The notes beneath the pieces are model-generated. The model saw only the letters and a list, made by a program, of their open reading frames with translations. It was not told where the DNA came from and did not search any database. The position numbers and the translations under genes are program-made. 32,000 nucleotides of DNA from Pyrolobus fumarii 1A (GTDB taxonomy: Archaea > Thermoproteota > Thermoprotei_A > Sulfolobales > Pyrodictiaceae), in NCBI RefSeq assembly GCF_000223395.1, contig NC_015931.1, positions 480,001-512,000 on the forward strand, given 5' to 3'. Of the stretch, positions 1 through 29,196 are shown piece after piece (the stretch's first letter is position 1; each line of letters starts with the position of its first letter).

Positions 1-541
1 CTTTCCTAGGCTTAGGTGTCCTCCCGGCTTGCTCATTCTGGTTCGCCTCGGATGCATAGCCTCTCGCGTAGAAGTAGCGCAGAGGATTTGTAATCACACG
101 ATCCTGCGCCGCTCTCGTCCTCTTGCCCATTATGAACCCCCCAGCCTTCCAAACACAGTTTTGGCTACTCTCGTCGTAGCTTAGCGTAATATTATCCCAG
201 GATGAGGATGTTAGACTACTTGCATTCATCCCCCACATAGAGGGCGTGCTTGTGTCAATGTTACACCCTTGATTGCACGTTATTTCGATGTACTCGGCTT
301 TAGCCGAGGAGTTGTAACCGTGCTCGATTCTACAGTCGCACTTTACACTTGTCTTCACGCATCTTCTAAGATCCTCAGAGTTCGCAATGTACCATGTGAT
401 TGCCGCTAGTGTGAAAGCGAGTGATCTCGCTAAAAGTGCCTCCGGCGGCGGGACGAAGATGCGAGCCGTGTTAGACGGTGTAGATGGAGCTTTTGCCGCT
501 CGTCTCGACCCGGTTGCACGCTTAACCCGCTTCTTTGCCAT
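1..541 (-). CDS. Partial ORF (N-terminal ~180 aa, continues past the left edge). Cys-rich and unassigned. It sits downstream of cas5a, where cas3'/cas8a would be expected.
   Basis: Hand translation of the minus strand: ATG at 541-539 (MAKKRVKRATGSRRAAK...), upstream in-frame stop at 565-563, frame open to base 1. Overlaps the cas5a 3' end by 20 nt. No Walker A in the visible part. Cys clusters CVKTSVKCDC and ITCNQGC. Absent from the ORF track because it has no stop in the window. Confidence 0.5.
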   Translation of the reverse strand, partial: MAKKRVKRATGSRRAAKAPSTPSNTARIFVPPPEALLARSLAFTLAAITWYIANSEDLRRCVKTSVKCDCRIEHGYNSSAKAEYIEITCNQGCNIDTSTPSMWGMNASSLTSSSWDNITLSYDESSQNCVWKAGGFIMGKRTRAAQDRVITNPLRYFYARGYASEANQNEQAGRTPKPRK

Positions 542-1451
542 GGTCCCGCACCCTGGGTATGACTATACGCGTATGCACGAGTATATACTCTATTGTAGGT
601 TCACGCTTAGAGGGAAAAACAGAGTTTAAACTCTCAACGCGATACACGCCACACTTATCCGTGTTGATTTTTACGCGCACCCAACCCGGGTATCTGGGGT
701 GTATCGCTTCGCGTAGCACATTGAATCTGGTTAAGCTTGGGTTTAGCTTACTGCAGGGTTCAGCCGAGTAGCTGCATATAAGCTCGTCCGCGTCGCGTGG
801 TACAGGCGTCTTCTCGGCCACATAGTTTCCGTAAACATTTCCAACGCATTCTCTCAACGTGAGCCAGGGTGTCACAATCTCGTTGACACCATGCTCCTCT
901 ACAAGTTGAGCCTCAAACACGGCCAGGGGATCGACAAACGACTCTTTACCGCCAAGCCGCGAGACATGCTGCAGACCCGTCTTGAGCGCGTCTATGTCCC
1001 CGTCTTCGGATGCAACCAGTACCATTACCCTACCGTGGGGTGAAATCGTGTACCCTAGCTTTATTGGCGCAAAGAGCTCGTGGACGGCGAGTTTCTGCGG
1101 GAGGTCTTCACGCCTAGTTTTGAGCGACTGATACGGGCCTGTGAAGTAGCGTATGAGTATACCGGTTCTAATGGAGGGTGAGAGCCAGGCTGCCGAAACC
1201 CACCATCTCCTACCGAGGATCTTTATTATGGATGCAGCGCCGCTAGTTAAGATCGACCCGGAGCCGATACTCGTAATTATGAACTCGCGTGTACCCAGCA
1301 ACCCGAGGTCGTGGAGGGTCTTGGCTAGCGCCCCTAGAATTGTGGTTGGCGGGGGGAGTAGGTATGAAGGTTGAGATGCGCTTCCGAACCACGCTCGGCT
1401 CGACAACCCCCAGTGGACGCGGTATACCGCAATAGCAGCTCGGAGTACCAA
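522..1451 (-). CDS. cas5a: Cas5a (type I-A Cascade RAMP subunit)
   Basis: N-terminus ...VHWGLSS...SYLLPPPTTILGALAK matches the Cas5 hallmark (HWGFS...LPPPTTLIGAL in Sulfolobus Cas5a). It lies directly downstream of cas7/csa2, as in type I-A operons. Confidence 0.85.
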   Translation of the reverse strand: MVLRAAIAVYRVHWGLSSRAWFGSASQPSYLLPPPTTILGALAKTLHDLGLLGTREFIITSIGSGSILTSGAASIIKILGRRWWVSAAWLSPSIRTGILIRYFTGPYQSLKTRREDLPQKLAVHELFAPIKLGYTISPHGRVMVLVASEDGDIDALKTGLQHVSRLGGKESFVDPLAVFEAQLVEEHGVNEIVTPWLTLRECVGNVYGNYVAEKTPVPRDADELICSYSAEPCSKLNPSLTRFNVLREAIHPRYPGWVRVKINTDKCGVYRVESLNSVFPSKREPTIEYILVHTRIVIPRVRDHGKEAG

Positions 1452-1458
1452 GACGTTT

Positions 1459-2715
1459 TCACCTGGCGGTGCACTGCAAGCCTACATTGTCTCGAATCCT
1501 CCCGATCAAGTCGGGTATGGTGTTCGTTATCTCAACACCTGGTAGCCTGCCTATCAGCTGCCTGAGCCTCTCGGCGTAGTTGCTGCCTAGGGCTGCCGTG
1601 ACATATGCTACGAGCTTCACGTCAACATTGAGCTTCTTGTAGTCGTCTAGCTTCCTCTTAAGTTCCTCCACAAGGTTCTCGAGGGGTAGTGTCGCTGGGG
1701 GTAGCGGCACCGGCCTGTCGCTCAAAACTGCTATGACAAGCTCGGTGACGTTATGCGGCCTGTACCTTGACCTCTTGGCTCCAAAATCGCCTTCGAGCAA
1801 CGGCCTAAGTGCATCCAGAGCAACGCACCTTCTCAATGTCAGCGTGCACTCTTTGTCCTCCACGCACCCCCCTGCTATGCTATAGCTCCCCACGCAACAG
1901 AGGTCAAGCTCGATGTTGCCGCCGTAGAGCACCGACCCGACCTGCACGTAGTATGGGACCTGGATGGCCTCCTCGTAGCCAGGTAGCCTCAACGACTGTG
2001 CCTTTAACGCGCCCCTAACGTGCATCTGGTGGTCAAGCTGCGTCGCCTCGATAGCGTCGAGCGTTGGTATGAGATAAGAGAAGCGTATGCAGCTAGTCCT
2101 CCTCGTGGGTCCCTGAGTGACCAGGAAACCCCCAATATCCTCCACGAGGCTATTGTCAACAATCCGCTTCTCAATATCCTGTAGGTCGCTGAGCGAGAAC
2201 CCCTCTCTCCTACCAGCATAGCGATTAGCGAGGTCACACTCCCAGCCTCTGGGCTTAGGTGCCTTGCCCTGCTCAGCCTGTTGGCACTGCTTCTGGTAGA
2301 AGCCCAGATCCCAGTGTTTGAGTAGCTCACCTTGCTCGCTCCAGTAGTCTATCCTACTGCTGCACTCGGTGTACTTTGTCTTTGCCAGCTCGACTATCTC
2401 CATCTGGTAACGGTGTGCTAGAGATTCTCCACTGACTGCAGGTACCCACCTGACCACATATTGTCCTGGAGCCCTCGGGACTATGACGGGGACAGTCCTC
2501 CTCCTCGTCACGTTCCCCACGCTTTCAACCATGTTGAGGGCGTCGACGTTCACTAGCAACCTGTAGACAATCTGAATCCACCTCAACTTGATGTTGCAAC
2601 ATGCACTTCTCTCCTCCCGGTCGTTACCAGTCTCCATACTAGACCCTCCGCCCGCCCCACCACCCTCAAGCTTCTTGAGAAGCTTCTGAAGCTCGGTCTT
2701 CTTGTTCACAGTCAC
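1459..2715 (-). CDS. cas7: Cas7 / Csa2 (type I-A Cascade backbone subunit). The start may instead be the internal ATG at 2637.
   Basis: LLVNVDALNMVESVGNVTRRRT, VSGESLAHRYQ, RRTSCIRFSYLIPTL and GDFGAKRSRYRP align with conserved Csa2 blocks that I recall from Sulfolobus Csa2 (VSGEALAHAYQ, RRTSRIKLGYMIPAL, GNFGGKRSRFLP). The N-terminus has an unusual Gly-rich linker (GGGAGGGSS). Confidence 0.9.
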   Translation of the reverse strand: MTVNKKTELQKLLKKLEGGGAGGGSSMETGNDREERSACCNIKLRWIQIVYRLLVNVDALNMVESVGNVTRRRTVPVIVPRAPGQYVVRWVPAVSGESLAHRYQMEIVELAKTKYTECSSRIDYWSEQGELLKHWDLGFYQKQCQQAEQGKAPKPRGWECDLANRYAGRREGFSLSDLQDIEKRIVDNSLVEDIGGFLVTQGPTRRTSCIRFSYLIPTLDAIEATQLDHQMHVRGALKAQSLRLPGYEEAIQVPYYVQVGSVLYGGNIELDLCCVGSYSIAGGCVEDKECTLTLRRCVALDALRPLLEGDFGAKRSRYRPHNVTELVIAVLSDRPVPLPPATLPLENLVEELKRKLDDYKKLNVDVKLVAYVTAALGSNYAERLRQLIGRLPGVEITNTIPDLIGRIRDNVGLQCTAR

Positions 2716-2721
2716 GCCCCA

Positions 2722-3084
2722 TCACCTCCCACCAGCAAGAGCTTTCACAGCAAGCTCGTGGGCGAGACGCAAAGCGTGTTCAACGCACTCTGACCTCCTG
2801 GCGTCGCTAGCAATCGCCTCGACAATCTCGACTAGGCTGTCCCACTCGTCACGCCTCCTCTCCTCAACATTCTCAATGACGCTCCTCACGCCCCTCTCAA
2901 CCTCGAACAGTGCCACCAGGAGAGAGTCTGGGCCAGAAGCCAAACCAAGCTTGTCAACAGGACCGTACCTGGCCTCCTTCACGAAAGCCTCGTGGAGAAG
3001 ACGAGCCGCCTTAGACACTCTGAAGGAGTCGACACGGGCAGATCTACACTCTTGACCCTCAACGAGGGACATGGCCATCCACAA
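2722..3084 (-). CDS. csa5: Csa5-like small subunit (Cas11 equivalent of type I-A). Likely start is ATG at 3078 or 3072.
   Basis: ~115-120 aa helical protein, first gene of the csa5-cas7-cas5a order, 6 nt upstream of cas7. The call is by position and size, not by a sequence motif. Confidence 0.55.
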   Translation of the reverse strand: MWMAMSLVEGQECRSARVDSFRVSKAARLLHEAFVKEARYGPVDKLGLASGPDSLLVALFEVERGVRSVIENVEERRRDEWDSLVEIVEAIASDARRSECVEHALRLAHELAVKALAGGR

Positions 3085-3102
3085 GTATGTGCTTATCGCA
3101 AG

Positions 3103-3110
3103 GTAAAAAC
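3103..3110 (-). promoter_or_regulatory. TATA-like box upstream of the csa5-cas7-cas5a operon
   Basis: Minus strand reads CGTTTTTACC about 25-30 nt upstream of the candidate csa5 start codons (3084/3078). The spacing fits an archaeal promoter for a (near-)leaderless transcript. Confidence 0.3.
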
Positions 3111-3567
3111 GTTAACCAGTCAAATATTTTCTAGCGCATATACACTTGCTGGCATACAACGAGCATACAAGACCGAGAGGGAGCATAAAACATCAATATG
3201 TATCGTCAAGGGTAGTTAGCATACGTACTAAGTGTCGCACTACATGTAACGATTGTAGCGATTGAAGTTATACTAACACCTGGCACTAGGGTTAGTAGGC
3301 TCTCACGCCGCAGCCACTTACAAGATGTTCAAAGCTGCTACCGTACAACCACGTTACGCCAATTACTATGACCGCGGAGGGTGACTGATATGCGCTTAGA
3401 GCCAGCATCAGGCTATACTAACTATCGTGAAGTGTTCGCCGTGGCTAGTGAACAGCGGAACCGGTAAAATTGGAATGCAGTGCGGCATCGCTGATTGCCT
3501 AGGCCTGATGGAGGATCCCGTATCTCTCGCCGTATTTATCATACTCTGTCAAGCCTCTCAAATCCGG

Positions 3568-8101: not shown

Positions 8102-8197
8102 AACATAATTCATTCTTGGTTGTTCGCCGGTATCACCTCGCGCACGGCATCCTGCGTCACCAGCCTCGCTAGGGAACAACCAAGAATGAGTTGAAAG
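8102..8197. repeat. Orphan inverted pair of CRISPR-repeat-like sequences flanking a 47-48-nt segment
   Basis: 8102-8125, aacatAATTCATTCTTGGTTGTTC, has array orientation and a degenerate 5' end. 8173-8197, GGAACAACCAAGAATGAGTTGAAAG, is the reverse complement of the array repeat with 2 mismatches. Positions 8107-8125 can pair with 8174-8192 over 19 bp including one G-U. Confidence 0.85.
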
Positions 8198-12538: not shown

Positions 12539-12783
12539 TCTCCAATTCATTCTTGGTTGTTTCGTGGCGCTCATCGTCTCGTAGGCCTTGACTATGGTCG
12601 GCCTCGACTTCTTTCAATTCATTCTTGGTTGTTTCATATGGGGTGAGGTGTTGATATGGGGCGAAGTTGAGAATTATGCCAGAATAATCTTTCAATTCAT
12701 TCTTGGTTGTTTCTCTGCTCTCCCTCTTCTCCACCATATTCTCGATGTGCTCCTCTAGCTTTCAATTCATTCTTGGTTGTTTC
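12539..12783 (-). CRISPR. CRISPR array 1: 4 repeats and 3 spacers (47, 53, 45 nt). crRNA sense is on the minus strand.
   Basis: Repeats at 12539-12563 (degenerate: TCTCC instead of CTTTC), 12611-12635, 12689-12713 and 12759-12783. Plus-strand consensus is CTTTCAATTCATTCTTGGTTGTTTC. The minus strand reads GAAACAACCAAGAATGAATTGAAAG, ending in the ATTGAAAG tag. Confidence 0.95.
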
Positions 12784-12802
12784 GTCCTACAGTATCAGTA
12801 GG

Positions 12803-13216
12803 GTGTTTGCTGCCGCGAGGGGCATAGCCAAGGGGCTTCTCGCTGTACGGGAGGAGCGCGTCTACCGCGGGCGTAGGGTCGTGGTAACCGGCTACGACCT
12901 CGTAGAGTTGTTGACCCTCATTGCAACGGTTGCCGACCCCGAGGCTCGGAAGAGAGTAGCCGAGGCCATAGCCGACGGGAACGCCGAGGCCGCCAGGCGC
13001 GTAGAGGAGAGGATGGTTGAGTACGTGGCGTCCGTCGTGGAGTCGCCGGACCCCCTGGCCGCGCACGTGGCTCAACGCGTAAACGAGGAGTGGTACGCCA
13101 GGTTCGCGGAGTTCATCCAGGAGCCGGACTACATGCGTTTCTTGCGCCGGCGTTTTTCCCACTCGCGGCGCAGCTTCTCCTCGGCTATCCGCCTAGCCCG
13201 CTCCAGCTCACTTTGA
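12803..13216 (+). CDS. Hypothetical helical protein (start GTG 12803 or later). The track ORF start at 12707 lies inside the array and is an artefact.
   Basis: The middle part is protein-like (DPEARKRVAEAIADGNAEAARRVEERMVEYV...EEWYARFAEFIQEPDY). The 3' end overlaps the convergent membrane-protein gene by 88 nt. Confidence 0.35.
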   Translation: MFAAARGIAKGLLAVREERVYRGRRVVVTGYDLVELLTLIATVADPEARKRVAEAIADGNAEAARRVEERMVEYVASVVESPDPLAAHVAQRVNEEWYARFAEFIQEPDYMRFLRRRFSHSRRSFSSAIRLARSSSL

Positions 13217-13893
13217 GTCAACCCTAATGAGCGTGCAAGCTCCACCGCGAGCTCTAGCCCGAGGCGCTTGCCAATCGGCACTAGGACTTCATCCGCAATC
13301 AGAGCAGCATAGTCGCCGTCGTACTGGGCGAGCTTCCACCAGAGCCACTCGATGCTATCCGTCACCCAGAGAAGCGGCGCGAGCACCGCAGACACCACTG
13401 TAACGAGGAACCAGTCTAGCGGTAGGCGGCCCCCCACGAGCGCCAGTAGCAAGGGGGCCGCGGCTGCCACGGCGGCCTCCGCTGCAGAGGCCCCGGCCCA
13501 CCCCTCGTCGCTAGGCCTGCCCAGGAGCGCTATCGGTATACCGAGGTAGAGCAGCCCGCCCACCGGCGCGGTTAGCAATGCAGCCGCGGCATGATGTGCC
13601 CCCAGCGCCCCGGCCACCAGGCCGAGCGGCACGGCAGCCAAGCCAGCCCAGAAGGCGTCGCCCAGCACATTCGCCCTAGTGACGAACATGGATAGTGGAG
13701 CCAACCCCAGGGTGTCGTCGGCGAACCACCATAACAGTAGCAGGTAGAGCGCGACCAGCACCGTACCCGCGGGTAGCTCGAACCCGCCCAGCACCAGGTG
13801 GACGGGCCAGAGCGCCAGCGTCTCGGCCAGCCAACCCAACAGTTGTAAAGCCTGGGCTTCTACCATCGTAAACCCCGGGTTACACCCGACCAT
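13129..13893 (-). CDS. Polytopic membrane protein with a charged C-terminal helix
   Basis: Multiple hydrophobic helices, then ...ELERARRIAEEKLRREWEKRRRKKRM. No family recognised. Confidence 0.5.
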   Translation of the reverse strand: MVGCNPGFTMVEAQALQLLGWLAETLALWPVHLVLGGFELPAGTVLVALYLLLLWWFADDTLGLAPLSMFVTRANVLGDAFWAGLAAVPLGLVAGALGAHHAAAALLTAPVGGLLYLGIPIALLGRPSDEGWAGASAAEAAVAAAAPLLLALVGGRLPLDWFLVTVVSAVLAPLLWVTDSIEWLWWKLAQYDGDYAALIADEVLVPIGKRLGLELAVELARSLGLTQSELERARRIAEEKLRREWEKRRRKKRM

Positions 13894-13930
13894 CCACGAC
13901 CACTTATACCCCGGGTTAGTCGCGAGTACA

Positions 13931-14623
13931 TCAAGATGGTGTGCGGGCTAGTACCCAACCGTCAGATGCTCTTCGCCCCGGTCCGCCAACGGGGGTGTGC
14001 ATGTGTGCGCCGACTGAGCTGTTACCTAACATGCTGCGGAAGAGCTTGTAGGCCTCATTACTCAGCTCCTCGAACACTTGAGCCGCGACGCCTTGGCGTG
14101 CGGCTATACCGGCAAGGACGAGGATGACAGCCGCTTTGACATATTCGCCCTTGCCAATCTCGCACCGGAGGTACCTATCGATGATGGTTAACGCGCTGGC
14201 AACCGACGCGAAGAATGCTGCAGCCTCCTCGGTGAACCTACCCTCCCCCAGCTCCTTGGCGAAGAGGCGGCACCAGATGCAATCCCACAACTCTTCTACC
14301 TCGGCTTTCACGGCCGCCGGTGTGGAGCCATCCAGGAACCTGGGAGCGTCTCGAGCGAGCTCGGCTAGCCTCTCCTCCAAGAGCGCCAGGGCTTCGTGGA
14401 CACGCCCCGCCCTAACTAAGGGCGAGACCTCCTCCTCAACCCTGCTCAACCACTCCTCAATCACACTGCGGGGTAGGATGCGCGACTCCCGCCTAAGCGA
14501 GTAGACAGCCACCGCGGCGAGTACAACATCCTCATCCACACAAGCGGGCACGGGAACCACCATCACAAAACTGCATGAACGATTGTTATCCCTTCTTGGC
14601 TCCTCGGGGTGCCGAGGCGTCAA
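13931..14623 (-). CDS. Hypothetical helical protein (start possibly the ATG at 14563)
   Basis: ORF with balanced composition. No motif recognised. Confidence 0.4.
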   Translation of the reverse strand: MTPRHPEEPRRDNNRSCSFVMVVPVPACVDEDVVLAAVAVYSLRRESRILPRSVIEEWLSRVEEEVSPLVRAGRVHEALALLEERLAELARDAPRFLDGSTPAAVKAEVEELWDCIWCRLFAKELGEGRFTEEAAAFFASVASALTIIDRYLRCEIGKGEYVKAAVILVLAGIAARQGVAAQVFEELSNEAYKLFRSMLGNSSVGAHMHTPVGGPGRRASDGWVLARTPS

Positions 14624-14657
14624 TGTGCATACGGTGCTGTTCCCGACCGACCCGGGG

Positions 14658-14664
14658 TATAAGA
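14658..14664 (+). promoter_or_regulatory. TATA-like box for the 14700 gene
   Basis: GGGGTATAAGAGG, with TATAAGA 36-42 nt upstream of the GTG start. GGTG SD-like element at 14692-14695. Confidence 0.35.
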
Positions 14665-14699
14665 GGTAGGAGGCTACGGGCGGTCGTTCACGGTGGGTC

Positions 14700-16424
14700 G
14701 TGGTGGGTAGGCTGGTGCTCTACGCTGCCGCGGCGGCTGTGGGTGTGTACATCGGCCTCCTCGTAGTCGCGCTCATCGCGTCCGTGCACGAGCAGCCCCA
14801 GAGGCCGGAGGTGCACGTCTACATCTACAACCGTGAGGCCTGGGAGGCGGCCCGGCGGCAACACGAGGTCACCCCGGTGGAGCTGGCGGAGGCCGTCCGT
14901 AACGGTACTCTGCTTGTCTCTCCGCCCGCCGGCCCCGGGCTGGCGTCCAGAGGCGAGCCCAGGGTACCCTACCCGCTCTGGGCCAGGATGAAGCCCGTGG
15001 ACGTGAGCGACCCGCGGGTACGCGGGTACCTGGAGTGGGTGCTGGGGCTCATCCGGGAGGGGGCCAGGAACCCCAAGAGCTACGGGTTCGACGACGCTGT
15101 GGTGCTCCCGAGGAGGGCTAGCCTGGAGCCACCCGCACCCATAGCGAACGCGACGGCCAGGATAGGCACCGTGCTCCTGCCCTACGGGTTCGCCGTCACC
15201 ACCGTCATCTACCCGTGCGGCCCCACGGGCAGCCCCGGCCTATGCGCGGTAGTCCACATGTACGCGTGGAACAAGACGGGCCTGGCGAGGATGGTGGTGA
15301 GGGCGATGGGGGTGGAGCAGTTGTTGGCGCCCCCACCCCGGCGCATGGGGAAGCTCGAATGGTTTGAGAAGCGGATACTCTGGGTCGTGGAGTGGCCGGT
15401 CGACCCGAGACACTCCGCCGTCCTCGCTTACAACGGGTCTAGGGTGGCGAGGGTCACGAGGGTCTACGTGGTGCTAGAGGAGCCGCTCATAGAGATGCTG
15501 GGGATACCCAGCCCAACCGGGTTCCTCTCCAGGGCGGCGAAGTGGTTCTGGGCGCTCTCCGGGGTAGCCGGGGGGATAGCCACCTGGCTCAGCGGCGCCG
15601 GCTACCATGAGGTGGCGGACACGCTTGTCCGCCGCGGCCTCCTGGCGTACAAACTGCACTACACGTATAGGGTGGCGTGGACCACCGGGGAGCCCTACCG
15701 GCTCATCCAGCGGCAGGGCGGCGTCTGCGAGGACTACGCCCTGGCGACACTCATGCTAATATCTGGGCTGGGGAACGAGCCCGCGGTGCTAGAAGTGGGT
15801 ATAGTCAATAAAGAGGGGCATTTCGCCGCGGGCCTACTAACGACGCTGGTGGACTGCGGGCTGTCCACAGACAAGTTCGTGGACCTCCCGGCCCCACTGC
15901 CGGTGTGCACCAGGGGCTACGTGAACTACGTGGACACCGCGAGCATGCCCACATCCCACTACAAGAGGCCGGTGTTCGTCCCGCCCTTCCTCATCCCCGA
16001 CGCCCTGGACTACTGGTTCCTCTGGAGGGGGTTCGTGGACAAGCTCCCATGGTGGCTGGTGAGCCCCTACGCGGCCAACACGACCCTGGGCCGTGAGGGT
16101 ACACGCTTCGTGATGGAGGTGGCGGCGAACTACTCCTGCACCCCCAGCATAGCCTGGCGTAGTGTCTACCCGCTGGCTGTGGGGGACGTGCTGGAGCAGG
16201 ACGCGGGGCTGGCAAGGAGCTTCGCCAGGTACGTGAACGCCACGCCCACCGGCGAGAGGCTCACCCCGCCCCCGCCAACCGTCTACAGGGCCGGCGACCC
16301 GACCCCACCCGACGTGAGACTCGACTACTCCCTGCCGGGCGACTTCCGAGTACCGGACCACGGCATCTTCTTGACAGAATGGGAGGCGCACCAGTGCCCA
16401 CCCGAGTTTAGCCGCGACACCTAG
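14700..16424 (+). CDS. N-terminally membrane-anchored large protein with a possible transglutaminase-like Cys-protease core
   Basis: N-terminal TM (LVLYAAAAAVGVYIGLLVVALIA). GGVCEDYALATLMLISGLGNEP...EGHFAAGLL...STDKFVD resembles the Cys-His-Asp spacing of transglutaminase-like folds. Confidence 0.5.
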   Translation: MVGRLVLYAAAAAVGVYIGLLVVALIASVHEQPQRPEVHVYIYNREAWEAARRQHEVTPVELAEAVRNGTLLVSPPAGPGLASRGEPRVPYPLWARMKPVDVSDPRVRGYLEWVLGLIREGARNPKSYGFDDAVVLPRRASLEPPAPIANATARIGTVLLPYGFAVTTVIYPCGPTGSPGLCAVVHMYAWNKTGLARMVVRAMGVEQLLAPPPRRMGKLEWFEKRILWVVEWPVDPRHSAVLAYNGSRVARVTRVYVVLEEPLIEMLGIPSPTGFLSRAAKWFWALSGVAGGIATWLSGAGYHEVADTLVRRGLLAYKLHYTYRVAWTTGEPYRLIQRQGGVCEDYALATLMLISGLGNEPAVLEVGIVNKEGHFAAGLLTTLVDCGLSTDKFVDLPAPLPVCTRGYVNYVDTASMPTSHYKRPVFVPPFLIPDALDYWFLWRGFVDKLPWWLVSPYAANTTLGREGTRFVMEVAANYSCTPSIAWRSVYPLAVGDVLEQDAGLARSFARYVNATPTGERLTPPPPTVYRAGDPTPPDVRLDYSLPGDFRVPDHGIFLTEWEAHQCPPEFSRDT

Positions 16425-16543
16425 ACCCCGGCGCACCCACCCCCACCCCTCCTCCACACCCGCGCTCACCCGGCACCCAGCCCCACACCAGCCATCCTCG
16501 CACCCTCCACACCCTACGCGCCCCGCACCCCCGAGGACGCCGC

Positions 16544-16667
16544 ATGCTGCAAACCATTGTGCACTCGGGGGCGCTCCCCGCCACCCGGGGGCCTGGAGGG
16601 CGGCCACACACAGCCCAGGGAGGGGCCCAGGAGCCCACAGCGGAGCAGCCATGTTGCAAACCATGGT
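16544..16667 (+). repeat. Two copies of the ATGTTGCAAACCATGG motif (left cluster)
   Basis: 16544-16560 ATGCTGCAAACCATTGT and 16651-16667 ATGTTGCAAACCATGGT, in GC-rich non-coding DNA after the stop of the 14700-16424 gene. Confidence 0.8.
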
Positions 16668-16846
16668 ACACACATGGGGCACCTCCAGGGCCCCTCTCCC
16701 CCGCCGCCGCCCGGCGCGCACGTAGACGCGTGGACGACCCCAGACGCCGCCAGAGTAGACCCTACCATCTTCCAGCTGGAGATGATGGTGTACCAGTGCC
16801 CACCGGGGGAGGAGTCCTAGCGCCCCGCGTGCGGCTGCAGGGTGGC

Positions 16847-17293
16847 CTACGGGGAGGTGGTTGCGCTTATGGCGTACTCGGGGTACGCGCTGTACACGTA
16901 GCGGAGGAGCTCGAAGGGCTTATCGGCCCACAGGCGGACCAGCCTCTCCATCTGCTCGAGGAAGTGGGGCTCCTCCCTCCTCAGCCTCTCCACTATCTCC
17001 TCGTAGAGCCTCCTCCCCTCCCCGGTCAGCTCGAAGACGTAGACGGTGTATGCTCCTCCATGAGAGGGCTCGGTGTGCACCCTCACCAGGCCCCGCCTCC
17101 TCGCCTCGTCGACGCCCCTCGCCAGCTCCGCGGAGACCGGGCCGTAACGGGTGGGTGTGTACCCCAGGCAGCAGCCGCCCGCCTCAACGACGCCCAGGAA
17201 CCCGAGCTTCTGGAGAACCGTGCCGCCACGCAGCCGCCCGCCGGCGAGCCCCACGAGCAGCACAACCCACTCGACGGGCGATAGCCTGGCCAT
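16847..17293 (-). CDS. Putative winged-helix DNA-binding protein
   Basis: 148 aa. LSPVEWVVLLVGLAGG...GTVLQKLGFL...YGPVSAELARGVDEARRRGLV...YVFELTGEG resembles a wHTH followed by a helical C-terminal domain. It is the only convincing ORF in 16.4-18.1 kb. Confidence 0.5.
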   Translation of the reverse strand: MARLSPVEWVVLLVGLAGGRLRGGTVLQKLGFLGVVEAGGCCLGYTPTRYGPVSAELARGVDEARRRGLVRVHTEPSHGGAYTVYVFELTGEGRRLYEEIVERLRREEPHFLEQMERLVRLWADKPFELLRYVYSAYPEYAISATTSP

Positions 17294-17704
17294 GAGTAGA
17301 CACCCCGAAAACCGGGCGTGGGCTGGGGGCGGCGCCCCTCTACCCCCGGAGCCCGATTAGCGCCAGGGTAAACGCGGCTAGGGCGATGCCAGCCAGGGTG
17401 AGGGTCTGTATGGCGAACTGCCCCGCGTAGACTGCTATGCGGTCAGACCCATCCACGCTCCCACCCTCCAGGGGACGGGGCCGGAGGCGCCGGTATACAC
17501 TCTTCCCCAGGGCCCTCACCGCGCGTCCTCGGGCCTCGCCGCCGAGTACTTCTCGACGAGCTCGCGTCCTCAAGGTTGGCTCCTCGTGCGGCGGTTGCCG
17601 GCGTAGACACCCGGTAGACCATCTGCCCAACTGCTCCGAACTCGCTCCCCGTGGGGGTGGCGTTGAAGGCCCCGGCTGGGGCCGCTCCCAACACCCACAC
17701 CCGC

Positions 17705-18040
17705 ATGTTGCAAACCACGGCACCCCTCCGTACCCAGGCCCCAGGTGGGCGCTGGGCAGCAACCGCGGGCAAGGGCATGTTGCAAACACCGGGGCCCCGA
17801 GACCCGCACCCCCCACGGGCCGGGGTCGCGTCAGCTGGGGCCGGAGGCCACCGGCCACGCCGCGAACCGTGGGGCGCTACCCTTCCCAGCCACACGCCGG
17901 GGGCGGAAACGGGCCAGAGCCGGGGCCTACGGGGAGACGGTGACGTTGCAAACCATGGTGCCCCTGGCTCCGTTCGCACGGGGCTTGGGGGGTGCACGAG
18001 CCCGGCTCCGGGCACCAGACCCCATGTTGCAAATCATCGT
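17705..18040 (+). repeat. Quasi-periodic cluster of the ATGTTGCAAACCATGG motif (right cluster)
   Basis: Copies start at 17705 (ATGTTGCAAACCACGG), 17777 (ATGTTGCAAACACC), ~17857 (degenerate, ACGCCGCGAACCGTGG), 17943 (ACGTTGCAAACCATGGTG) and 18024 (ATGTTGCAAATCATCGT). All are in the same orientation. Spacings are 72, 80, 86 and 81 nt. A related GTGTTGCTTGTACACGG forms the start of the 18084 ORF. Confidence 0.8.
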
Positions 18041-18083
18041 CTACTCTCTCACGCTCTCCGGGGCACGGTTATAGCCGCGTGGG

Positions 18084-18737
18084 GTGTTGCTTGTACACGG
18101 CATGAGGAGGGGCGTGTATACCGCGGCGTTCCTGCTGCCCTACCTCCGGGGGCGTCCCCGGAGGGGCGCCTCCCCCAGGCGGATAGTCATCTGGCAGTCT
18201 AGCAGCGAGTTCATCGAGGCGCTTAGGGGGGCGCTGGAGAGGGACGGGTTCGACCCGGGGAGGGTGATGGTCGTCAACGTGTACGCGACGAGGGTTAAGG
18301 GGAGGGTGTACCGTCGACTGAGGGTCGTGCTCCTGGAGCCGGTGGCGAGGAGGGTCTACCGCCTCCTCTACCCGAGGGTCAAGCCCGTCATCTACAGGTT
18401 CCAGGGTGCGAGGATGATGCTGAGGACCGCGCTGAGGGTGACGAGGGTGAGGGGCGCGAGGCTCGAGGGGCTCCGGAGGAGGCTGCTGCGCTCGGGGCTA
18501 GCAGCCACCGACATCGACCCGGTGTGCCGGGTGCCCGGCTGCCTGGCGGCGAGGCTAGCCAGGGGGAGGAACCCCTTCCTAGCGGCCTACCACAGCTGTA
18601 TGAGGCGCTACGAGTGGCTCCCCTTCGAGGAGAGGGAGGGCTACTGCATCTACACGGCCTATGAGGAGGTGGGCGGCGACCCGCCGCACTGGGCGAGGAT
18701 GATGTACGAGAGGGTCAGGGCGAGGCTATTCGGGTGA
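18084..18737 (+). CDS. Arg-rich hypothetical protein
   Basis: 217-aa ORF, very basic (many RR/RxR). Contains CRVPGC...HSC, a possible metal-binding motif. GTGA stop/start overlap with the next gene. Confidence 0.45.
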   Translation: MLLVHGMRRGVYTAAFLLPYLRGRPRRGASPRRIVIWQSSSEFIEALRGALERDGFDPGRVMVVNVYATRVKGRVYRRLRVVLLEPVARRVYRLLYPRVKPVIYRFQGARMMLRTALRVTRVRGARLEGLRRRLLRSGLAATDIDPVCRVPGCLAARLARGRNPFLAAYHSCMRRYEWLPFEEREGYCIYTAYEEVGGDPPHWARMMYERVRARLFG

Positions 18738-19000
18738 CGGGCGTGGCGCCCTCCGACGCGGGGCTGGAGGCGAGGAGGCTCGAGGGCGAGGCTAGGGCGG
18801 CGCGCGAGAAGATACGCGCGTTCGAGGAGAGGTACGGGATGTCCTCGCGGGAGTTCCTGGGGCGGTTCCTCCGCGGCGAGCTGGGCGACGAGCAGGACTT
18901 CATCGAGTGGTGGGGTGAACTCGTCTTCCTCGAGGAGGCGGAGAGGGGGCTGGAGGAGCTGAGGAGGGCTGAGCGGGGCGGGGAAAAAGAGCGGGGCTAG
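18734..19000 (+). CDS. Small antitoxin-like helical protein
   Basis: EKIRAFEERYGMSSREFLGRFLRGELGDEQDFIEWW resembles a pattern (FE-x-KYGMSSEEF...GEL-x-D-x-DF-x-W) that I recall from small archaeal TA-associated proteins. The family was not verified. Confidence 0.45.
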   Translation: MTGVAPSDAGLEARRLEGEARAAREKIRAFEERYGMSSREFLGRFLRGELGDEQDFIEWWGELVFLEEAERGLEELRRAERGGEKERG

Positions 19001-20994
19001 CCCTGCGGCTGGACACCCACCAGGTAGAGGATGTAGTCGTGGCTGGCGGGCGCAACCGCGTCTATCGGGACGCCCTCCGGCACGTAGTTGAACCAGGCTT
19101 CGGCGGCCTGGCCGACATCCCTCGTGAACACCTCGGCTCCCGTGGTGGCGTCGGCCAGCGTCGCCGTGACACTGGCGACCGGCTTGATGTTATGGATGTG
19201 TAGGAAGACCGGCGCACCGTAGACTCTGAAGAGGGCCTCGTCCCCAGGCATGACGATGAGGTGTGTCAGCGCGACTAGGCTGCCGCAGCCTTCGAGCCAG
19301 CCGCCGCACGCCCAGCCTGGGTGCACGCGCAGGTAGATGGTCGCCGGGCCCTGGACGAGCAGCGCGAGCCTATGCACGTTGCCGGACGTGAACGTGTAGA
19401 CGCTGCTAGTGTTAACCATACCCTCCGCCCTAGCCGCGATGATTGGGTTGGCGTAGCCGGTGTCGACCTCGACGAACGGCGGCTTCGCCCAGCTCGTGAT
19501 GGGCGTGTAGAACTCGGCGACTATGATGTGCCTCCCGTCCGGGACCCTCACCGCAAGCTCCGCCCAACCATCCGACTCGGACGTGGCGGCGACGAGCAGC
19601 GACGGCTCTACGGCTGAGTACGTGTCCCACAGCAGCCTCTCGAGCCACGCGTTCACAGCTATCCTGGATAGGCTGTAGGGGTTGCCACCGTTCCCGTAGA
19701 GCGGTAGGGCTACAACCGCGTTGCCGGACGCCGAGATGGTAAGCCCGTAGCCGGCAGCGGCCCTAGAGTACCTCGCGTCTATCTGCGACGCTTGTGGCTC
19801 CGGCGTTGCCCTAACCGCCCCGCCCTCCAGCCACACGATGCGGTCGATGACGCCGGGGACGTGTATGTACGGGTCCAGCAGCACGTCCGACTTCAACGTA
19901 TCGATGGTGGTGATAGCAGCGTGCCAGTAGAGCTCCGGCGGCTCGAAGCGCCCGGTGGAGGCGTCGAGGTGGCCGAAGGGCAGCGGGAGCCTGAACGTCG
20001 CGACGGGCAGGCTGCCCGTACGATACACGAGTATCTTCGAGAGGACGGCCGCCGCGTCGCTGAACTCCGGTGTATCGTCGCACGGGTTGAGGATGTAGGC
20101 GCGTATGCGGAGCCTATACTCGCCGCCGGTGGAGTCCAGGGCTAGCACCGGCGCGAGCTGCACCACGGTGTCACTAGTGTAGTTGAGGCAGATGACGGTG
20201 GTGCAGTCTGTGCCCCACGTCTCGCCGGGGCGGTCTATCACCGCCCTGGCGGCGACGCTCCCGTCGGGCGAGACGACCTCGACGACAATCCTCACGGTCA
20301 GCTTGTTGTCACCATCTTTGTCATCGTAGGTGAAGACGGGGACTACGACGACCCTGCCGCTTGGCAGGCTCAGCGGGACGATGACCTCCAGGAGCGGCTC
20401 CTCGGAGGCCAGTGTACAGACGTTGCCCTGCCAGAGCAGCTTGAACGTGTCGTCGCACGCGGCGTAGAGGACGACGCCCGAGTGCGCCGAGCTCCCGCCG
20501 GATAAGGTACTCTCGAGGTTCAGCCCGCGGGCGAGGGCAGCGTATCTACCGTCGCTCATCGGGCCCTTTACGCCCGGCTTCGGGTATGCGTCACAGTGCG
20601 GCAGGTAACTCCTGGCCACCACAACGCCGTCCGCGATAAGCTCCATCGTGGTGTTCCACTCGCCGGGGATACGAGCCGTCTTGTCGACACCCAGCCCGAC
20701 GTACGGCGCGTAGAGCCACGAGAAGTCGATGACGTAGCTGGATGGTTGGCCTCCCTGGTCAATATCCGGCCAACCCACCTGGTATGGTACCTCCGGGAGG
20801 TCTATGTCGAGGTGCACCACGCTGCCCGGCCTCGGGTCTGTGATAGCCCGGAAGCTCCTCTCCGCCCACCGGTACGCGAGGAACGCCTGGGCGGTGTCGT
20901 TCTCCGACGTGTGCGTCAGCGGCGTCACGACGTGGGCGCGGTACCGTACTGCGCCGGTGACGGTGCAGGGCCCCACGCCGGGTATCCTCGCCAC
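18997..20994 (-). CDS. Large (665 aa) beta-rich hypothetical protein with no TM or signal peptide. It starts 60 nt downstream of the array 2 trailer, on the same strand.
   Basis: Long ORF with balanced, strand-rich composition and a GTG start at 20994. No catalytic motif recognised. Confidence 0.6.
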   Translation of the reverse strand: MARIPGVGPCTVTGAVRYRAHVVTPLTHTSENDTAQAFLAYRWAERSFRAITDPRPGSVVHLDIDLPEVPYQVGWPDIDQGGQPSSYVIDFSWLYAPYVGLGVDKTARIPGEWNTTMELIADGVVVARSYLPHCDAYPKPGVKGPMSDGRYAALARGLNLESTLSGGSSAHSGVVLYAACDDTFKLLWQGNVCTLASEEPLLEVIVPLSLPSGRVVVVPVFTYDDKDGDNKLTVRIVVEVVSPDGSVAARAVIDRPGETWGTDCTTVICLNYTSDTVVQLAPVLALDSTGGEYRLRIRAYILNPCDDTPEFSDAAAVLSKILVYRTGSLPVATFRLPLPFGHLDASTGRFEPPELYWHAAITTIDTLKSDVLLDPYIHVPGVIDRIVWLEGGAVRATPEPQASQIDARYSRAAAGYGLTISASGNAVVALPLYGNGGNPYSLSRIAVNAWLERLLWDTYSAVEPSLLVAATSESDGWAELAVRVPDGRHIIVAEFYTPITSWAKPPFVEVDTGYANPIIAARAEGMVNTSSVYTFTSGNVHRLALLVQGPATIYLRVHPGWACGGWLEGCGSLVALTHLIVMPGDEALFRVYGAPVFLHIHNIKPVASVTATLADATTGAEVFTRDVGQAAEAWFNYVPEGVPIDAVAPASHDYILYLVGVQPQG

Positions 20995-21054
20995 GAGGTG
21001 GATGACGTACGGTGGCTTGTCGCTCCTACAGACGACCGGTAGGGTCGTGTCGTT

Positions 21055-22240
21055 CTTTCAATTCATTCTTGGTTGTTTCTACTATCCCCCATGCTGCAAG
21101 AAGCGCAGGATGTGTAACCTTTCAATTCATTCTTGGTTGTTTCATGGGAGTAGGAGCCGCTTCACGACCATCACCATCCTCGCTTTCAATTCATTCTTGG
21201 TTGTTTCGCACGCTACCTCACCCGGGTCACGCGCGCCACTATCACCCAGCAGGTGCTTTCAATTCATTCTTGGTTGTTTCGCGAGGCCTACGATTATGTA
21301 GTCTTTGAGTGTGAAGCTCTTGCTTTCAATTCATTCTTGGTTGTTTCGAAGTTTATTGTCATTGGTCGACATAAGTTTACACCGATTCAGCTTTCAATTC
21401 ATTCTTGGTTGTTTCACAAGTACGGGAAGGGCATCAGCGGAATTGCCAAGTACCTTCTTTCAATTCATTCTTGGTTGTTTCACGATGTCGATGTATATCA
21501 TAAATGCTTTGGCGAGTGTAACCTTTCAATTCATTCTTGGTTGTTTCATCCTTCCCGACCCTGGGCGAGGCCTTCGGCCTCCCGCCGCTACTTTCAATTC
21601 ATTCTTGGTTGTTTCTGGAGGAGGACGTGGGGAGGGAGTACGACAGGGAGTACAACCCCTTTCAATTCATTCTTGGTTGTTTCATGGGTGTTGGAACACT
21701 CGAAGAAGCTTGACGAGCTTAAACTTTCAATTCATTCTTGGTTGTTTCGTCTAGGGTATGGCGCGGCAATACAACACCAGGAGGTCTCTTTCAATTCATT
21801 CTTGGTTGTTTCTAATCTCGACTGGTCTGGGCACATTAACCCCCGATGGTATCTTTCAATTCATTCTTGGTTGTTTCCGTGTCTGGTATTGTAAGGATTG
21901 CGTACGAGAAGGGTATACTACGATTCGCAACTTTCAATTCATTCTTGGTTGTTTCACAATTACAACCCCAAGAAGCGTACAATAAAGCGGGGGGATAGCT
22001 TTCAATTCATTCTTGGTTGTTTCAGGAGGAGGTCGCGACGGTAGAGTCGCCACCGTACAACAACGTTACCTTTCAATTCATTCTTGGTTGTTTCCTGGGT
22101 CACCGCCTTCGGCGCAGACCCAGCGATTCTAGACGAGATCATCAACGCTTTCAATTCATTCTTGGTTGTTTCATGCGCTAGATCTAGCATTGCAATAGTA
22201 TATGCAATGAGCATCCTTTCAATTCATTCTTGGTTGTTTC
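21055..22240 (-). CRISPR. CRISPR array 2: 18 identical 25-nt repeats and 17 spacers of 39-53 nt. crRNA sense is on the minus strand, with the leader on the right.
   Basis: Repeat CTTTCAATTCATTCTTGGTTGTTTC starts at 21055, 21119, 21183, 21256, 21323, 21391, 21457, 21523, 21591, 21659, 21724, 21788, 21853, 21931, 21999, 22070, 22148 and 22216. The reverse complement ends in ATTGAAAG, the 8-nt crRNA 5' tag known from Sulfolobus and Pyrococcus. Confidence 0.97.
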
Positions 22241-28641: not shown

Positions 28642-29196
28642 GTGGAGATGCGTCCCGCGGAGACCAGCTTTACCGTGCTTCGGGGAGGTTGTAAGTGGGC
28701 GTCGGGCTTGACCAGCATAGTTGCTCTCCGGCTTCCTCGCAGCGTGGTTGAGAGGCTGGAGCGCGAGGCTAGAGGGCTTGGCATGGGTCTAGAGGAGTAC
28801 GTGTTAGAGCTTCTCCTGCATGACCTGGATCCGCCGGAGCGTGTGAGAGAGTACATCGAGGCCGCTAGGTTACTCCTTCAACGGGCTCGGGAGGAGCTAG
28901 AGAAGGGGGATGTTAGGCAGGCTGCTGAGAAGGCGTGGGGGGCTGCTGCGCTGGCTGTCAAGGCCTACGCGGCGTGGAGGGATGGGAGGAGACTAGCGAG
29001 CCACGGCGAGCTATGGGAGTACAAGAGGAGGCTGGAGAAGGAGCTTGGAGAGTGGGTTCACGACGCTTGGATGAACGCCACGGGGATGCACGTGTGCTTC
29101 TACGAGGGGTGGTGTACGCGGGAGGATGTGGAGAAAGCTTTGGAGAGAATCGGGAGGCTGGTAGGTGAGATCGGGAAGCGTGTAGGGGCACGGTAG
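28642..29196 (+). CDS. PaREP1-like protein with an RHH-like N-terminus (true start probably the TTG at ~28708)
   Basis: EKAWGAAALAVKAYAAWRDGRRLASHGELWEY matches the PaREP1-family core as I recall it. The N-terminal VALRLPRSVVERLEREA resembles a ribbon-helix-helix strand. Confidence 0.6.
   Translation: MEMRPAETSFTVLRGGCKWASGLTSIVALRLPRSVVERLEREARGLGMGLEEYVLELLLHDLDPPERVREYIEAARLLLQRAREELEKGDVRQAAEKAWGAAALAVKAYAAWRDGRRLASHGELWEYKRRLEKELGEWVHDAWMNATGMHVCFYEGWCTREDVEKALERIGRLVGEIGKRVGAR

Follow-up and report, generated by a model that had tools for sequence, protein, structure and literature searches.

The window analysed here is a stretch of 32,000 nt of the Pyrolobus fumarii 1A genome (contig NC_015931.1, positions 480,001 to 512,000) and contains six copies of a short word in non-coding DNA on both sides of a gene for a predicted winged-helix protein. 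These repeats are read here, with a probability of about 0.45, as a homotypic cluster of operator-like or iteron-like binding sites for a protein, which would belong to an integrated mobile element. The repeat family itself was confirmed as real. At a tolerance of three mismatches, the 16-mer ATGTTGCAAACCATGG was found exactly six times in the window, always on the plus strand (match starts 16544, 16651, 17705, 17777, 17943 and 18024), compared with a mean of 0.10 matches and a maximum of 1 in dinucleotide shuffles of the window. Independent repeat finding grouped the same six copies as one 19-nt family. A model built from the six copies (sequence only) gave scores of 18–23 bits for the copies themselves and 6.3 bits for the next site in the window. 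The initial annotation of this stretch had described six clear copies in one orientation, confined within the window to this region, and both points were upheld together with the spacings it had listed.

In its extended form the word reads (C)ATGTTGCAAACCATGG(TG). Copy 1 (GCATGCTGCAAACCATTGTGCAC; 16542–16565, two mismatches, 21.3 bits) and copy 2 (CCATGTTGCAAACCATGGTACAC; 16649–16672, no mismatches, 23 bits), the latter being the consensus copy, are located 120 and 227 nt beyond the stop codon of an open reading frame (ORF) of 574 aa (amino acids), between this gene and the convergent winged-helix gene. Copies 3 (17703–17726, one mismatch, 21.7 bits), 4 (17775–17798, three mismatches, 18.9 bits), 5 (17941–17964, one mismatch, 21 bits) and 6 (18022–18045, two mismatches, 18.3 bits) lie on the other side of the winged-helix gene, and all six are on the plus strand. 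The spacings of 107, 72, 80, 86 and 81 bp correspond to 10.2, 6.9, 7.6, 8.2 and 7.7 helical turns. A further, possibly decayed copy (CCACGCCGCGAACCGTGGGGCGC; 17855–17877, plus strand), proposed initially as a degenerate copy near 17857, was recovered by alignment and is in phase, 80 nt past copy 4 and 86 nt ahead of copy 5. With a score of 3.2 bits and an E value of 7.7 it is not significant alone, and such support as it has comes from its phase and from its pattern of change, the differences from the consensus being mostly T>C and A>G. A related sequence that had been placed at the start of an ORF at 18084 was not detected by the model, and the real start of that gene is probably ATG 18102.

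In an anchored alignment scored column by column for information content, the conserved span starts with the CATG that precedes GTTGCAAA and extends to approximately the GGTG that follows it, a length of ~19–21 nt. The layout of the word is CATG-TTGCAAAC-CATGG, which is asymmetric and ~19 bp long. Two joined palindromes had been proposed for the motif; one of these, ACCATGGT, was intact in just two copies, and what all six share is the invariant core TGCAAA. No conserved columns were found in the 25–40 nt downstream of the word in the anchored alignment of the six copies. Mean pairwise identity was 0.76 inside the 19-nt word and 0.26–0.43 in the adjacent 19-nt windows, where 0.30 would be expected from composition. 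The pieces of DNA between the copies were no more alike than shuffles (z = -0.25), which rejects a tandem duplication that is still visible in the inter-copy DNA. These pieces are 66–83 % GC (guanine plus cytosine), compared with 37–72 % for the spacers of a clustered regularly interspaced short palindromic repeat (CRISPR) array in the window, so that the initial description of the inter-copy DNA as unconserved and more GC-rich than the CRISPR spacers was accurate. Within this non-coding DNA, AT-rich patches are confined to the motif copies and to short boxes of TATA-like sequence. As conservation is limited to the word, with flanks at chance level and unrelated DNA between the copies, the word itself appears to be under selection. 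This pattern is best explained by selection acting on the double-stranded word, presumably as a recognition site for a protein.

The region with the copies lies in an 8.27-kb island (12784–21054) between the repeats of the CRISPR array. The CRISPR repeat CTTTCAATTCATTCTTGGTTGTTTC is present in four copies at 12539–12783 and in 18 copies at 21055–22240, in one orientation. The GC content of the island is 65–72 %, compared with ~55–60 % in the DNA on either side, and this contrast, together with the position inside the CRISPR array, indicates that the repeat word lies in a foreign island.

The interpretation as a protein-binding array, whether operator, iteron or centromere, was reached mainly by elimination of coding, RNA, promoter and CRISPR readings. 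The two non-coding stretches that hold the copies are 71 % GC. Codon-position GC periodicity was strong at 14700–16424, at 16847–17293 and from 18100 on, and flat over 16424–16700 and 17500–18000. A coding repeat was rejected on the basis of this flat signal and because copies 1 and 2, and likewise copies 3–4 and 5–6, are in different frames; a Pfam scan of the ORFs across the repeat region gave no match. The initial statement that this DNA has no credible ORF was mostly borne out, the exceptions being a small ORF at 17340–17456 and a possible copy of a gene end at 16716–16820, both described below. A promoter array was likewise rejected. The word has no TATA box, and the island genes use ordinary TATA boxes of the GGTATAAG type, such as GGTATAAGAGG ~40 nt ahead of the 574-aa start, GGTATAAGTGG ahead of a 254-aa gene and GGTTATAGCC ahead of a 211-aa gene, which indicates that the word is not a promoter; in addition, most motif copies have no gene downstream. 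No sigma-70-type promoters or intrinsic terminators were found, in a scan of little relevance to archaea.

Copies 3–6 and the decayed copy are spread over 340 bp and fill a ~575-bp region between two divergent promoters, at ~17495 on the minus strand and ~18070 on the plus strand. The array points towards the gene for the 211-aa protein (18102–18737, plus strand), and copy 6 ends ~24 bp upstream of the TATA-like box of that gene (GGTTATAGCC; 18067–18076, plus strand), which itself lies ~30 nt ahead of ATG 18102. On the other side, the TATA-like sequence GGTATACAC (17491–17499, minus strand) forms an AT-rich patch that resembles other island TATA boxes and is likely the promoter of an operon formed by the small ORF and the winged-helix gene. 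Given this position of the array between divergent promoters, with its last copy so close to a TATA box, control of expression would be its most likely function. The copies would act in cis as recognition sites for one sequence-specific DNA-binding protein, and would be carried by a mobile element that has integrated into the Pyrolobus fumarii genome and partly decayed. One protein, either a monomer or a dimer, may dock on each copy, and the bound array would most likely set the expression of the orphan operon encoding the 211-aa and 88-aa proteins and perhaps also that of the small-ORF/winged-helix operon. A second anchoring point may be formed by the copies at 16544 and 16651, past the convergent 3' ends, and the two sets of copies would bracket the winged-helix operon by analogy with the iteron sets around repA in P1-type replicons. 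Candidate binders are the PadR/MarR-like winged-helix protein, the orphan basic 211-aa protein and a host nucleoid protein. The main sub-alternative within this reading is a maintenance role, in which the array would be the origin or partition site of a once-free element; for a protein-binding array, a regulatory role is considered somewhat more likely than a maintenance role.

The gene between the two sets of copies encodes a protein of 148 aa (16847–17293, minus strand; 100 % identical to P0001 of Pyrolobus fumarii 1A) that is annotated as a 'transcriptional regulator'. An AlphaFold model based on a four-sequence alignment had a predicted local distance difference test (pLDDT) score of 74 and the order helix, strand, helix, long loop, recognition helix, beta-hairpin wing and then three helices. 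Foldseek matches of this model to the PDB were weak (E 0.009–0.09, template modelling score ~0.41–0.47) and consistent in kind, comprising HxlR, PadR and MarR regulators, the Bacillus subtilis replication terminator protein (RTP) and STIV F93. A sequence profile search of the PDB gave no significant match. From the model and its structural matches, the protein is predicted to be a winged-helix protein of PadR/MarR/RTP type, in agreement with the winged-helix assignment in the initial annotation. Three homologues with 72–79 % identity were found, all in hydrothermal-vent assemblies, and at the DNA level the conservation between their loci and the window was confined to the winged-helix gene. 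The flanks of the three homologues contained neither the word nor another convincing repeat family. Sequences that resemble tRNA 3' ends (GGTTCAAATCC…CCA) flank or adjoin the winged-helix homologues (L003 1456–1493 and 2512–2549; L002 1–20), and ARAGORN called no complete tRNA on the contigs of the homologues. The placement of these sequences suggests that the winged-helix homologues sit in small tRNA-targeting integrated elements.

The iteron sets of theta-replicating plasmids such as P1 provide a close layout for comparison with the copies. In P1 the incC and incA sets flank repA; iterons are ~22 bp apart or otherwise helically phased, have an AT-rich region for unwinding beside them and bind a Rep protein with tandem winged helices. 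The window is similar in having six co-oriented direct repeats of ~19 bp, in two sets that bracket a winged-helix gene on a mobile element. It differs in its irregular spacing of 72–107 bp, in the absence of an AT-rich region and in its neighbouring protein, which is modelled as a single winged helix of PadR/MarR type rather than a member of a Rep family and which has homologues without such repeats. Iteron phasing was rejected because the spacings are neither ~22 bp nor multiples of ~10.5 bp. The iterons suggested initially are thus not of the classical kind, as there is neither helical phasing nor an AT-rich region for unwinding, and no initiator of Rep type was recognised. An archaeal chromosomal origin (oriC) with origin recognition box (ORB) elements was rejected on the basis of co-oriented copies, no AT-rich region and no AAA+, Orc1 or Cdt1-like domain in the island proteins, and a partition centromere was rejected with neither a ParA-type ATPase nor ParB among the island ORFs. 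The split into two sets around a winged-helix gene also recalls the oriC3/WhiP replicator–initiator pair of Sulfolobus, a putative captured extrachromosomal replicon in which WhiP binds repeats in and beside its own gene (Robinson and Bell 2007, as cited in PMC3607249; PMC4010727). The likeness is that of a crenarchaeal locus of putative extrachromosomal descent with a winged-helix gene and sequence repeats; the tandem winged-helix Cdt1-like protein, the AT-rich repeats and the ORB-type elements of oriC3 were not seen here.

Operators of the PadR family have the form ATGT-N8-10-ACAT (PMC3506622). The best structural matches of the winged-helix protein are PadR, HxlR and MarR proteins, and the word is similar to these operators in that it opens with ATGT, followed 8 nt later by a second block of 4 bp. 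Overall it reads ATGT-N8-ATGG, or CATG-N8-CATG in the consensus copy, and thus differs in its second half-site, which is ATGG or CATG and not ACAT. PadR operators are also single promoter palindromes, whereas the word forms an array. ATGT was present in four of the six copies and ACAT at N8–N10 in none, and the centre of the word (TTGCAAA) was better conserved than the half-sites, so that the PadR operator rule does not hold and a PadR-type operator was rejected.

In favour of a protein-binding array are, besides the sequence evidence given above, the location of copies between divergent operons, their position beside a gene modelled as a winged helix and their setting in a foreign island with a relative on a metagenomic contig. 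A number of observations weigh against it. The spacing of 72–107 bp is irregular and out of helical phase, which is unlike classical iterons or centromere repeats, and the PadR rule fits the word in its first half only. No AT-rich unwinding region was found, with no 500-nt window within 16001–18500 below 67 % GC, and no Rep, ParA, integrase or Orc1/WhiP gene was detected among the island ORFs. The word was absent from the flanks of all three winged-helix homologues, which instead share a conserved promoter, CATCTCCGGCTATA(T/A)CC, that is absent from the window. Co-inheritance of the word with the winged-helix gene was thereby rejected, and the initially proposed link between the word and the adjacent protein was not supported. 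On the metagenomic contig that carries a syntenic relative of the island core (L346), the similarity reaches only as far as the 574-aa homologue and not into the repeat region; the motif model had no match on this contig. The case for selection draws on the six copies in a single genome.

Searches for the word elsewhere gave results close to chance. The 17-mer CATGTTGCAAACCAYGG had 15 single matches in viral contigs, from unrelated organisms, and 109 single matches in 185,579 species genomes, again from unrelated organisms and none of them clustered, close to the ~140 chance matches estimated for this genome collection. The genome scan did not return the P. fumarii locus itself, which was presumably masked, and within that limit no further near-consensus copy was returned from P. 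fumarii or any relative. A scan of viral contigs for two copies gave single, unrelated matches only, and a scan of metagenomes for two copies 50–80 nt apart gave only unrelated CRISPR arrays, coding repeats and single matches. The CRISPR arrays found in this way were genuine, with 36-nt repeats beginning GTTGCAAACC and units of 72–80 nt.

Of the rival explanations, a functionless relic is the most probable, though still unlikely. The copies would in this case be the leftovers of old duplications or of repeated insertion or recombination, for example attachment (att)-like cores, in a decaying island, with no present-day protein that uses them. The island does look degraded, with orphan genes, the possible duplicated 3' end at 16716–16820 and one decayed copy; there are no recognisable maintenance genes in it, and no relative carries the word. 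Neutral decay, however, should erase the word and its flanks alike, and the word is 76 % identical with random flanks and unrelated DNA between the copies. The persistence of an AT-rich word in DNA of 75–83 % GC likewise argues for constraint. An element that functions at the RNA level is improbable. This would be either a set of tandem small RNAs, as the initial annotation had proposed as its alternative, or a long leader or non-coding transcript in which the repeated words, as single strands, would bind a protein in a sponge-like manner. The location of all copies on one strand, the 72–86-nt units with a size similar to that of small RNAs, and the position of the array directly upstream of the 211-aa gene in the same orientation are consistent with such an element. 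The folding results are not: none of the seven units folded better than shuffles on either strand (z -1.0 to +2.1), the whole 412-nt array gave z = +0.47, and a 5-bp hairpin of copy 2 has no equivalent in the others. Structured RNAs were rejected on this basis. Rfam scans of the repeat region, in both gathering and E-value modes, and an ARAGORN scan for tRNAs were empty, and there is no TATA box upstream of the array and no T-rich terminator after any unit.

A vestigial, island-borne CRISPR-like array with a second repeat type, in which the word would be what is left of the 5' part of an old repeat, is highly improbable. It would account for the layout of repeat, unique spacer and repeat in units of 72–86 nt and for the position of the island within a CRISPR array, and genuine GTTGCAAACC-type arrays of 36-nt repeats in units of 72–80 nt are common in metagenomes. 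The window is similar to these arrays in the first 10–12 nt of the repeat, in unit length and in the unique sequence between copies. The resemblance to GTTGCAAACC is nevertheless to be discounted because it was imposed by the search pattern, and the genuine repeats are near-identical over 36 nt, form a hairpin and end in ATTGAAAC or ATTGCGAC; the copies in the window, in contrast, share only ~19 nt and no 3' end. A canonical CRISPR array, with near-identical repeats of at least ~23 nt and uniform spacers of ~30–50 nt, was rejected: the shared part here is ~19–21 nt, with 76 % rather than ~100 % identity and no shared repeat 3' end, and the intervening pieces, although unique, are 51–88 nt long and at 66–83 % GC have the composition of motif-free non-coding DNA of the island. 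There is also no leader, and Pfam recognised no cas gene in the ORFs nearby. There is only a slight chance that the copies are sites for a host nucleoid or origin protein, as GC-shifted versions of the crenarchaeal 'ucm' bound by UBP, a nucleoid and origin protein (PMC12141716), in a captured replication origin. The Sulfolobus ucm ATTATACAAAC, taken from oligonucleotides in PMC12141716, agrees with ATGTTGCAAAC at 8 of 11 positions, CAAAC included. Both are short, asymmetric words ending in CAAAC, of which ucm is read as double-stranded DNA and the window word would be; ubp is reported in Desulfurococcales, taken here as the host order, and Sulfolobales, and ucm also in Aeropyrum origins (PMC12141716), and the notion that origins can arise by capture of extrachromosomal elements is well established (PMC3607249, PMC4010727). 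The agreement at 8 of 11 positions is the best of many offsets, with an estimated chance probability of ~0.05, and is therefore statistically marginal, and the conserved word of 19 nt is longer than ucm. The island has no ORB elements, AT-rich region, orc1 or whiP. Furthermore, ucm is present once per origin, inside an AT-rich region, with hundreds of additional sites scattered genome-wide (PMC12141716), whereas the window word forms a local array in GC-rich DNA and is absent from the remaining 30 kb of the window. A more far-reaching proposal, doubtful on present evidence, is that the array is the maintenance locus (origin or segregation site) of an unrecognised family of GC-rich mobile elements in deep-sea hyperthermophilic Crenarchaeota. 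Such an element would have entered via recombination with a CRISPR repeat or spacer, its ~80-bp-spaced sites would recruit the winged-helix protein of the element or the host ucm-binding protein, and the locus would be a freshly captured archaeal origin.

The neighbouring genes and non-coding DNA show several other features. Weak codon periodicity was found at 17290–17530 in the frame of a minus-strand ORF, the last 38 codons of which (17340–17456, minus strand; …AIQTLTLAGIALAAFTLALIGLRG*) are predicted from the translation and the periodicity to encode a membrane helix; this probable 38-aa ORF lies upstream of the winged-helix gene in the same orientation. The orphan 211-aa protein is arginine-rich with a C-terminal Cys/His cluster, and its sole database match is itself (P0005), with the public gene call also starting at ATG 18102. 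Its structural model had a pLDDT of 48 and was uninformative. An 88-aa ORF (18734–19000, plus strand) overlaps this gene by 4 nt and has weak similarity to TumA antitoxin and PDC-M44A. The 574-aa protein (14700–16424, plus strand) is the last gene of the conserved core of the island. The sequence at 16716–16820 looks like a diverged duplicate of its 3' end (16318–16424), in the same frame and also ending in TAG, with the tails …MMVYQCPPGEES* and …EAHQCPPEFSRDT* and an open frame between the first and second TAG. The BLASTP E value of this pair was 6e-4, which is suggestive for the protein, and the DNA alignment was not significant. Directly past the 574-aa stop, at 16425–16540, the strand is strongly C-rich (…CCCACCCCCACCCCTCCTCCACACCC…). 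The non-coding DNA of the island is 71–83 % GC and thus richer than the island genes, which is unusual. The hexamer GTAGAC is present six times on the plus strand in non-coding DNA around the winged-helix operon (16722, 16755, 17296, 17427, 17603 and 17614, the last two 11 nt apart), with 0.16 expected from composition, and may be a second candidate binding word.

The island has few relatives. Its proteins had almost no family matches in Pfam, PHROGs, NCBIfam and PADLOC, tblastn of the island proteins against phage records gave no match, and a match to a Haloarcula plasmid was weak and uninformative. The 211/217-aa protein and the 665-aa protein (Pyrfu_0540) had no homologue beyond themselves among 5.8 billion proteins. 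For the 574-aa protein, an exhaustive search found one real relative, P0008, with 32–37 % identity, encoded on the metagenomic contig L346 (ENA ERZ27262668; positions 1–3543, 66 % GC). Homologues of the island genes at 12758–13144, 13171–13854 and 14910–16295 are present on this contig in the same order, which suggests that the island belongs to a small family of GC-rich elements. The 230-aa gene, the repeats and the winged-helix gene are all missing from L346, as are the remaining island genes, and an unrelated convergent gene begins 24 nt past the 574-aa homologue. As similarity ends there and the motif is absent, the repeat region is taken to be part of a variable arm, as distinct from the conserved core. 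The initial suggestion of an integrated plasmid or virus is thus supported as to context by a GC-rich island of orphan genes inside a CRISPR array with a syntenic relative. An independent Logan assembly of run SRR064176 matched 17263–18898 exactly. No paper on Pyrolobus mobile elements or on the present locus was found.

The first gene of the island (12758–13144) is homologous to a 171-aa ORF at 304–819 of L346, and the alignment extends into the CRISPR repeat (AFNSFLVV versus AFNAALFL; GCTTTCAACGCCGCGTTGTTTTT on L346 versus GCTTTCAATTCATTCTTGGTTGTTTC in the window). No full CRISPR repeat was found on L346. An alignment that runs into the CRISPR repeat suggests that a part of the element's own gene that resembles the repeat may have served for the insertion. 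The two ends of the island beside the CRISPR repeats, at 12785–12806 and 21024–21046, both read TCCTACAG…GTAGGGT with different middles, and could be an att-like or duplicated-spacer signature of insertion. The leftmost CRISPR repeat is degenerate, as is usual for terminal repeats. The reverse complement of CTTTCAATTCATTCTTGGTTGTTTC ends in ATTGAAAG, which, given the usual orientation of crenarchaeal repeats, would place the leader beyond 22240 on the right, with the island among the units far from it. A lone copy of the CRISPR repeat, with two mismatches and in the opposite orientation, is present at 8173–8197 (minus strand), 4.3 kb left of the array, and a PaREP1/HEPN protein is encoded at 28642–29196, right of the array. 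No cas genes were recognised within the window by Pfam on either side of the island. No CRISPR spacer of the window matches the island, a 10-nt overlap between the first spacer and copy 1 being attributable to chance.

Clustered direct-repeat binding sites on a mobile element are a familiar kind of feature; new are the word itself, the mobile element and the setting in this host. If the word is a relic, it is a mere curiosity of one genome. If the copies are docking sites, they would provide a 19-bp handle with which to fish out a sequence-specific DNA-binding protein from a host that grows at up to 113 °C. No less interesting than the repeats is the GC-rich orphan element inside the CRISPR array. 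On its left side the element joins the array at a point where one of its own genes resembles the CRISPR repeat, and this setting could show how mobile elements invade or disable CRISPR arrays and how archaeal chromosomes capture extrachromosomal replicons.

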